A stretch of 37,150 bases of DNA, from positions 1-37,150 of the forward strand of contig CAZCYO010000005.1 in the NCBI GenBank assembly GCA_964503265.1. Direction: 5' to 3'. Every line of letters starts with the position of its first letter. The stretch's first letter is position 1. Source of the stretch: an uncultured Gammaproteobacteria bacterium. GTDB taxonomy: Bacteria; Patescibacteriota; Microgenomatia; Levybacterales; UBA12049. A program made the position numbers and the translations under genes. Below the pieces are notes generated by a model. It was not told the origin of the DNA and did not search any database. It saw only the letters and a list, made by a program, of their open reading frames with translations. Below, one piece after another: positions 33,903-34,239 of the stretch.

Positions 33903-33960
33903 AGATTCATTGTCGCAAGTGAGGCAAGCAGAGTCAAGAAAGGTGAGATGATATGTTATG

Positions 33961-34034
33961 TAGCAGGAGTGGGGATCGAACCCACGACCTCAGCGTTATG
34001 AATGCTGTGCTCTAACCGACTGAGCTACCCTGCC
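33961..34034 (-). tRNA. tRNA-Met(CAU), probably elongator
   Basis: GGCAGGG...TAGCTCAGTCGGTTAGAGC...TTCATAA...GGTTCGATCC...TCCTGCT A; CCA not encoded; TTGTAT-N17-TAAAAT upstream. Confidence 0.92.
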
Positions 34035-34097: not shown

Positions 34098-34126
34098 TTG
34101 ACCCCCTCACCCGTGCCTGTTATAAT
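34098..34126 (+). promoter_or_regulatory. Sigma70 promoter for the plus-strand tRNA
   Basis: TTGACC-N17-TATAAT. Confidence 0.85.
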
Positions 34127-34135
34127 GATTTTACG

Positions 34136-34204
34136 CGCGGGTTAGTGTACAGTGCACGCGAGGCTCATAATCTTGCAGGCTAGGCGCAACTCCTAGACCC
34201 GCAA
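34136..34204 (+). tRNA. Non-canonical initiator-like tRNA-Met(CAU)
   Basis: Cloverleaf with C1xA72 mismatch, CTCATAA anticodon loop, 5-nt D loop, T loop CGCAACT; own promoter and terminator. Confidence 0.75.
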
Positions 34205-34211
34205 CACTACG

Positions 34212-34239
34212 AAAAAAAGACCAGAAATGGTCTTTTTTT
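34212..34239. terminator. Bidirectional intrinsic terminator
   Basis: A7-GACC-AGAAAT-GGTC-T7. Confidence 0.8.

Follow-up and report, generated by a model that had tools for sequence, protein, structure and literature searches.

A probable initiator tRNA with a remodelled core and a re-paired elbow in a bacterium of the class Microgenomatia

The window, a DNA stretch of 37,150 nt, encodes a tRNA with the anticodon CAU whose body departs from the canonical form at many conserved positions. Comparison with its homologues argues that this gene is the functional initiator tRNA (tRNA-fMet) of the organism and of most of the class Microgenomatia (CPR/Patescibacteria), a reading to which we assign a probability of roughly 0.85. 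The gene is conserved, apparently works and breaks several supposedly universal rules of tRNA architecture. This class-wide natural form has dropped A11-U24, two of the three G-C pairs of the initiator anticodon stem, G18, U54 and U55, yet it displays strict secondary and tertiary covariation. It represents a natural experiment on which features of the initiator and of the tRNA elbow are really needed when the tRNA is formylated, selected at the P site, processed by RNase P and given its CCA. There is also a consequence for annotation, as pipelines relying on the Rfam tRNA model could report such genomes as being without an initiator tRNA, and a group I intron may additionally hide the gene in around one quarter of related genomes.

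The gene comprises 69 nt up to the discriminator A73, with CCA not encoded, and is identified by ARAGORN as tRNA-Met(CAU) (Table 1). Its cloverleaf has a 7-bp acceptor stem in which C1 stands opposite A72, a 4-bp D stem (GUGU/GCAC) that makes pair 11-24 a U-A, and an anticodon stem (CGAGG/UCUUG) in which 29-41 is A-U, 30-40 is G-C and 31-39 is G.U (au/GC/gu). The anticodon stem extends to 6 bp when the Watson-Crick 26-44 pair is counted, the variable region has 4 nt and the T stem 5 bp. The canonical elbow set G18 G19 / U54 U55 C56 is absent and reads A18 G19 / C54 G55 C56. The gene falls below the 29-bit gathering threshold of the Rfam tRNA model (RF00005), which also gave no match at E<=10 in a 400-nt search. 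No other Rfam family was assigned to the tRNA at gathering or at E<=10 either; weak small RNA matches reflect the terminator only. The z-score of the single-sequence fold is only -1.36, and the structural support for this tRNA comes from comparison and not from energy. An alternative D arm with a 5-bp stem and a 3-nt loop, as drawn in the single-sequence minimum-energy fold, was rejected as it is not conserved among relatives.

Table 1. Features of the initiator tRNA locus, in window coordinates.
Feature	Position	Strand	Evidence
Sigma-70-type promoter TTGACC-N17-TATAAT, extended -10 TG-n-TATAAT (putative)	34098-34126	+	11/12 consensus matches
Initiator tRNA(CAU) (probable)	34136-34204	+	ARAGORN call; 91 bits with covariance model R1; comparative support for the cloverleaf
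D loop ACAGU = A14, C15, A18, G19, U(20/21)	34149-34153	+	No nucleotides between 15 and 18; third base covaries with 55; G19 invariant
Anticodon CAU in loop CUCAUAA	34166-34168	+	Loop invariant across 81 homologues
T loop CGCAACU = C54, G55, C56, A57, A58, C59, U60 (7 nt)	34185-34191	+	G55 always with A18 or C18; C56 and A58 invariant
Intrinsic-terminator-like 12-bp hairpin and T run	34212-34239	+	Similar hairpin and T run 3' of the gene in several relatives
Canonical elongator tRNA-Met(CAU), divergent neighbour	33960-34034	-	Rfam tRNA, 64.1 bits

In the window copy 9 nt (34127-34135) separate the -10 hexamer from position 1 of the tRNA. Most relatives have a -10-like hexamer with its end 9-10 nt 5' of the gene, and the three bases directly before the gene are usually ACG. 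This fixed spacing implies a 5' leader of only about 3 nt, provided that the predicted promoter functions as such. After A73 nearly all homologues read CA (34205-34206 in the window), and CCA is encoded at only about 5 of 81 loci. High CCA-templating is reported for initiator genes (PMC5143459), unlike the homologues here. The initial annotation, made from the sequence alone, had described a 69-nt cloverleaf with C1xA72, the D loop ACAGT, the T loop CGCAACT, a CGAGG/TCTTG anticodon stem and U-A at 11-24, together with a promoter, a terminator and a back-to-back canonical tRNA-Met, and every one of these elements is present, the last in divergent orientation.

The genome assembly totals 1.38 Mb in 5 contigs, with a marker-based completeness of 100%. 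ARAGORN recovers 42 tRNA genes and Rfam 41 of them, all but the one described here. A CAU anticodon occurs in only two of the 42, the other being of the elongator type (C30-G40, C11-G24). The remodelled tRNA is the only initiator candidate in the genome, with the proviso that in a five-contig assembly a second CAU tRNA could sit in a gap. No tilS homologue was found in the genome and a tRNA-Ile(UAU) is present (C3:61641-61714), so no third CAU tRNA is needed; AUA is probably read without lysidine. A covariance model (R1), built from a MAFFT alignment of 28 copies of the gene, gives a single match in the organism's own genome, though it also detects ordinary CPR initiators at 52-72 bits. Second R1 matches at 50-60 bits in some other genomes, considered as extra initiators, were identified as tRNA-Gln.

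The acceptor end is that of an initiator. Across 54 distinct homologues A72 never varies, and facing it at position 1 is C (38), U (13) or A (3). G2-C71, C3-G70, G4-C69 and A73 are invariant as well. A survey of 234 genomes found C1, G2, C3, G70, C71 and A72 in nearly all fMet genes, with U1-A72 and A1-U72 as rare alternatives, and derived from 457 such genes the degenerate stem consensus R29 G30 G31..Y39 C40 Y41 (PMC1635315). The remodelled tRNA follows this degenerate rule (A G G..U C U), invariantly across 81 homologues save for one G31-C39, while the strict set of three G-C pairs at 29-41, 30-40 and 31-39 is reduced to its middle member. Of the elements of the anticodon stem, G30 alone is essential to an initiator in E. 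coli, where a first G-C pair changed to au is less efficient, and au/GC/gu is a known natural variant of some mycoplasmas and alpha-proteobacteria (PMC5389676). A11-U24 is present in 100% of the 457 fMet genes of the 234-genome survey (PMC1635315). All 81 homologues carry U11-A24 instead. In E. coli, pair 11-24 (A11-U24) contributes to formylation.

The partners of an initiator tRNA are encoded in the genome, namely infC and a def-fmt operon whose fmt scores 241 bits, exceeding the curated cut-off. The G1338/A1339 region of 16S rRNA was not found in the organism's own five-contig assembly; it is kept (GGAA) in four of five relatives searched, and those four carry the remodelled tRNA. From these features we infer charging with methionine, formylation by Fmt and use at the P site. 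MetRS would recognise the tRNA through CAU and A73, and Fmt would formylate it through the unpaired 1-72 end together with G2-C71, C3-G70 and G4-C69. At the 30S P site, G30-C40 amid three purine:pyrimidine pairs (au/GC/gu) would satisfy the check exerted by G1338/A1339 and IF3, with IF2.

The assembly state leaves room for a different reading, in which the gene is a specialised non-initiator tRNA or tRNA-like RNA, such as a decoy, a regulator or a non-ribosomal donor, and the true initiator lies in unassembled DNA. Five contigs without the 16S part searched for, and the rejection of the sequence by the Rfam tRNA model, speak in its favour, as does the precedent of the non-ribosomal tRNA-Gly species of staphylococci, whose T loop likewise reads UGC in place of UUC. 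We nonetheless consider it improbable. Of 151 genomes of the order, several of them single-contig, just one has a canonical initiator anticodon arm (three G-C pairs). The sole exception (G114; C12:8747-8759, L061) has 9% contamination and also has the remodelled tRNA, and its canonical arm is a probable contaminant. R1, sensitive enough for ordinary CPR initiators, finds one match in the organism's own genome, and fmt, def and infC require a formylatable tRNA, for which this tRNA alone has the determinants. Moreover, A18:G55 recurs in the only tRNA-Tyr found in the genome, so such an elbow works in translation. The initial annotation had offered a repurposed tRNA-like RNA as its second option; this finds no support.

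An exchange of roles, with the neighbouring tRNA-Met as the initiator and the remodelled tRNA as an elongator tRNA-Met, is very unlikely. The neighbour does combine a weak G1.U72 end with a textbook elbow (a normal D loop with GG and a UUCGAUC T loop). However, it has C30-G40 and thereby no G30, the element essential in E. coli (PMC5389676), its pair 11-24 is C-G, and its acceptor stem is variable and without G2-C71. The remodelled tRNA in turn carries an acceptor stem of the fMet type and clusters with initiators from other CPR classes. At most family-level loci ARAGORN places this elongator tRNA-Met beside the remodelled gene, on the opposite strand. In most relatives (L002-L030) that elongator tRNA-Met has an A31/C39 mismatch closing the anticodon stem and a U32 loop, UUCAUAA.

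Conservation of the remodelled initiator tRNA extends well beyond the window. A BLAST search recovered the gene from 35 of 41 relatives. With R1, 94 of the 151 genomes sampled from the order have an intact copy of at least 73 bits; the 5' half of the gene is found in 127, and the union with intact matches amounts to 132 of the 151. Across the class, 77 of the 151 genomes sampled, spread over many families, have intact copies of at least 80 bits, a tally that takes in one unpublished genome (G222); the order and class counts alike draw on genomes of related species and are non-independent samples. In the alignment of 28 copies, 100% of 420 stem cells are paired, double-sided changes occur in 7 of 20 stem pairs, and none of 500 shuffles reached the covariation score. 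As a control, sliding the structure by 1-3 columns left only 29-57% paired. RNAalifold independently returned the same cloverleaf from 81 copies with nine compensatory pairs, 26-44 (GC 52, AU 28) among them, and the window copy itself carries a compensatory U7-A66. Being conserved with fully paired stems and compensatory changes, the gene is, by this comparative measure, maintained and not decaying. A decaying pseudogene copy of a tRNA-Met gene, which the departures from many conserved positions and the failed Rfam model might suggest, is refuted on comparative grounds by class-wide conservation, 100% paired stems, 7-9 compensatory pairs, strict tertiary covariation and a conserved promoter and terminator. 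The view of the initial annotation that this is a reduced but maintained initiator tRNA is borne out by that conservation, by the compensatory changes, by the lack of a canonical tRNA-fMet among the 42 tRNAs of the five-contig assembly, by the formylation determinants and by the retained degenerate stem rule. One member of the family (G115; C21:17174-17245, L140, on a 17.8-kb contig) has a CPR-typical initiator with A11-U24 and a 7-nt D loop in place of the reduced form, through either misbinning or real replacement.

The comparison also revises the picture of the elbow. It had been described as lost, with both partners of the D-T contact gone together as in mitochondrial tRNAs. That description is half right: positions 18 and 55 have changed, here to A18 and G55, but they have been replaced as a covarying pair and not simply lost, while G19:C56 is present and invariant (54 of 54 distinct sequences). 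Among the same 54 sequences 18:55 is A:G in 27, G:U in 25, G:C in 1 and C:G in 1, and never A:U or G:G. At 1.0 bit, the mutual information of this pair ranks third among all column pairs, and 0 of 10000 permutations reached that value. C54 is found only together with G55. Family f1, family f2 and even a single genus each contain both states of 18:55, so the switch has happened repeatedly. On this evidence the elbow is re-paired rather than lost, a covarying alternative pair standing at 18:55 and G19:C56 being retained.

The rest of the core is similarly constrained. U8, A14, A58 and A45-G46 are invariant in the alignments, and 26:44 is G-C in 33 of the 54 distinct sequences and A-U in 20, with one A-C. 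The Levitt pair 15:48 displays no clean covariation. The D loop is 5 nt long in the family of the window and 6 nt in most others, with zero nucleotides between 15 and 18, compared with 7-11 nt in the other 41 tRNAs of the genome. In the three-dimensional fold that these patterns suggest, the L-shape would rest on G19:C56, on A18:G55 replacing G18-pseudouridine-55, and on a stiffer stack via 26-44.

Elbow variants of this kind are found in other tRNAs as well. The tRNA-Tyr(GUA) of the organism (C4:30639-30724; L142/L143) has A18 G19 with the T loop UGCAAAU, and 11 of 11 tRNA-Tyr genes from the class, including those from L144-L153, combine AG with UGC and GG with UUC. The A18:G55-type swap is also seen in one tRNA-Thr (L145) and in three CPR initiators of other classes (L091, L094, L101). 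In the organism's own genome nine elongator tRNAs (Thr-CGU, Thr-GGU, Gly-GCC, Ser-ACU, Ser-GCU, Ile-GAU, Ile-UAU, Arg-GCG and Pro-GGG) have a UCC T loop, and with it C55, alongside G18; examples lie at C1:247020-247092, C2:70171-70243 and C3:61641-61714. Pseudouridine-55 is thus impossible in about one quarter of the tRNAs of the genome. The genome does have a TruB, though a divergent one (88.8 bits, cut-off 151); TrmFO was not found in it, nor any clear TrmA. For the RNase P RNA the score is no more than 43.6 bits, where gathering requires 100, and ARAGORN detected no tmRNA in the genome. Both tRNA-Ala(UGC) and the 3' domain of 16S rRNA are missing from the assembly, so the rRNA operon is probably unassembled.

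Set against bacterial tRNA-fMet as represented by E. coli metZ/metY, the remodelled tRNA shares CAU in CUCAUAA, the unpaired C1/A72, G2-C71, C3-G70, G4-C69, A73 and a G30-C40 within three purine:pyrimidine pairs, and the genome likewise holds fmt, def and infC. It differs in A-U at 29-41, G.U at 31-39, U-A at 11-24, a D loop of 5 nt against about 9, a Watson-Crick 26-44, A:G at 18:55, C54 and the absence of an encoded CCA. With the au/GC/gu and au/GC/GC initiators of mycoplasmas and alpha-proteobacteria it has in common a weakened anticodon stem that keeps the middle G-C; as described, those variants keep A11-U24, which the remodelled tRNA does not (PMC5389676, PMC1635315). Metazoan mitochondrial tRNAs also have a short D loop, have lost the G18 and U55 identities and belong to the translation system of a small genome. 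Here, in a bacterium and not an organelle, none of the four arms has been lost, G19:C56, U8-A14, A58 and a T loop of 7 nt remain, and the replacement covaries.

A further comparison is with the initiators of other Patescibacteria classes, whose best R1 matches score 52-72 bits at 71-74 nt and which share the acceptor stem, the anticodon loop, A29-U41 and the short length. Unlike the remodelled tRNA, they have A11-U24 in a D stem of GAGC/GCUC, a D loop of 7 nt and, for the most part, G31-C39 (au/GC/GC). Their variable region has 4-5 nt, G26 faces A44 in most rows, and the T loop is mostly UUCGAAU; some of them already share A18:G55. Within the class, some families keep the body of the other classes but with G31.U39, and others combine the GUGU/GCAC stem with a 7-nt loop. 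In this comparison ordinary CPR initiators grade into progressively reduced forms, with the window form as the extreme. Mycoplasmas are already known to have this anticodon-stem variant. New are the absence of A11-U24, a minimal D loop, a Watson-Crick pair at 26-44, C54, G:C and C:G as rare forms of 18:55, the distribution across the class and the frequent intron. A literature search found no mention of A18 with G55 in a tRNA T loop, nor of CPR initiator tRNA structure.

Only residues 2-238 of the Fmt of this organism (285 aa; C4:24947-25801, L118:1501-2355) can be aligned with solved Fmt structures, and Pfam covers only the first 40 of the 100 positions of its C-terminal domain. This tRNA-binding domain may therefore be shortened or divergent. 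In the E. coli complex the C-terminal domain of Fmt contacts the D stem. We take the divergent domain as a lead for co-evolution with the remodelled tRNA and as nothing more. It is conceivable, though we think it rather doubtful, that the shrunken core is an adaptive initiator-specific shape signal that has co-evolved with the divergent Fmt C-terminal domain, IF2/IF3 and a protein-poor ribosome. Were this the case, Microgenomatia would tell initiator from elongator partly by body shape, which would make up for the weakness of the G-C stem. Taken with the C55 and G55 of elongator tRNAs, it would also make the 'universal' pseudouridine-55 elbow something that an entire bacterial lineage can do without.

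In 38 genomes of the order the 5' half of the initiator gene was found without an intact match. All 13 of these that were examined (L019, L020, L154-L164) have the gene split after U33, between U33 and C34, by an insert of about 190-210 nt ending in G, and 12 of the 13 inserts score 53-90 bits as group I introns. The intron of L019 was missed at Rfam gathering and scored 78.9 bits with a laxer filter. The insert of L020, also missed at gathering and without an intron match at E<=1e-5, has an identical architecture. By extension, around one quarter of the order genomes (up to 38 of 151) may have the gene split by a group I intron. The situation resembles that of the cyanobacterial tRNA-fMet group I intron in that the gene of relatives is split in the anticodon loop by an intron of about 190-210 nt, and differs in that the host gene here is the remodelled initiator. 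The intron is confined to relatives, the window copy itself being unsplit, and the exons of the split genes obey the 18:55 rule just as the intact genes do.
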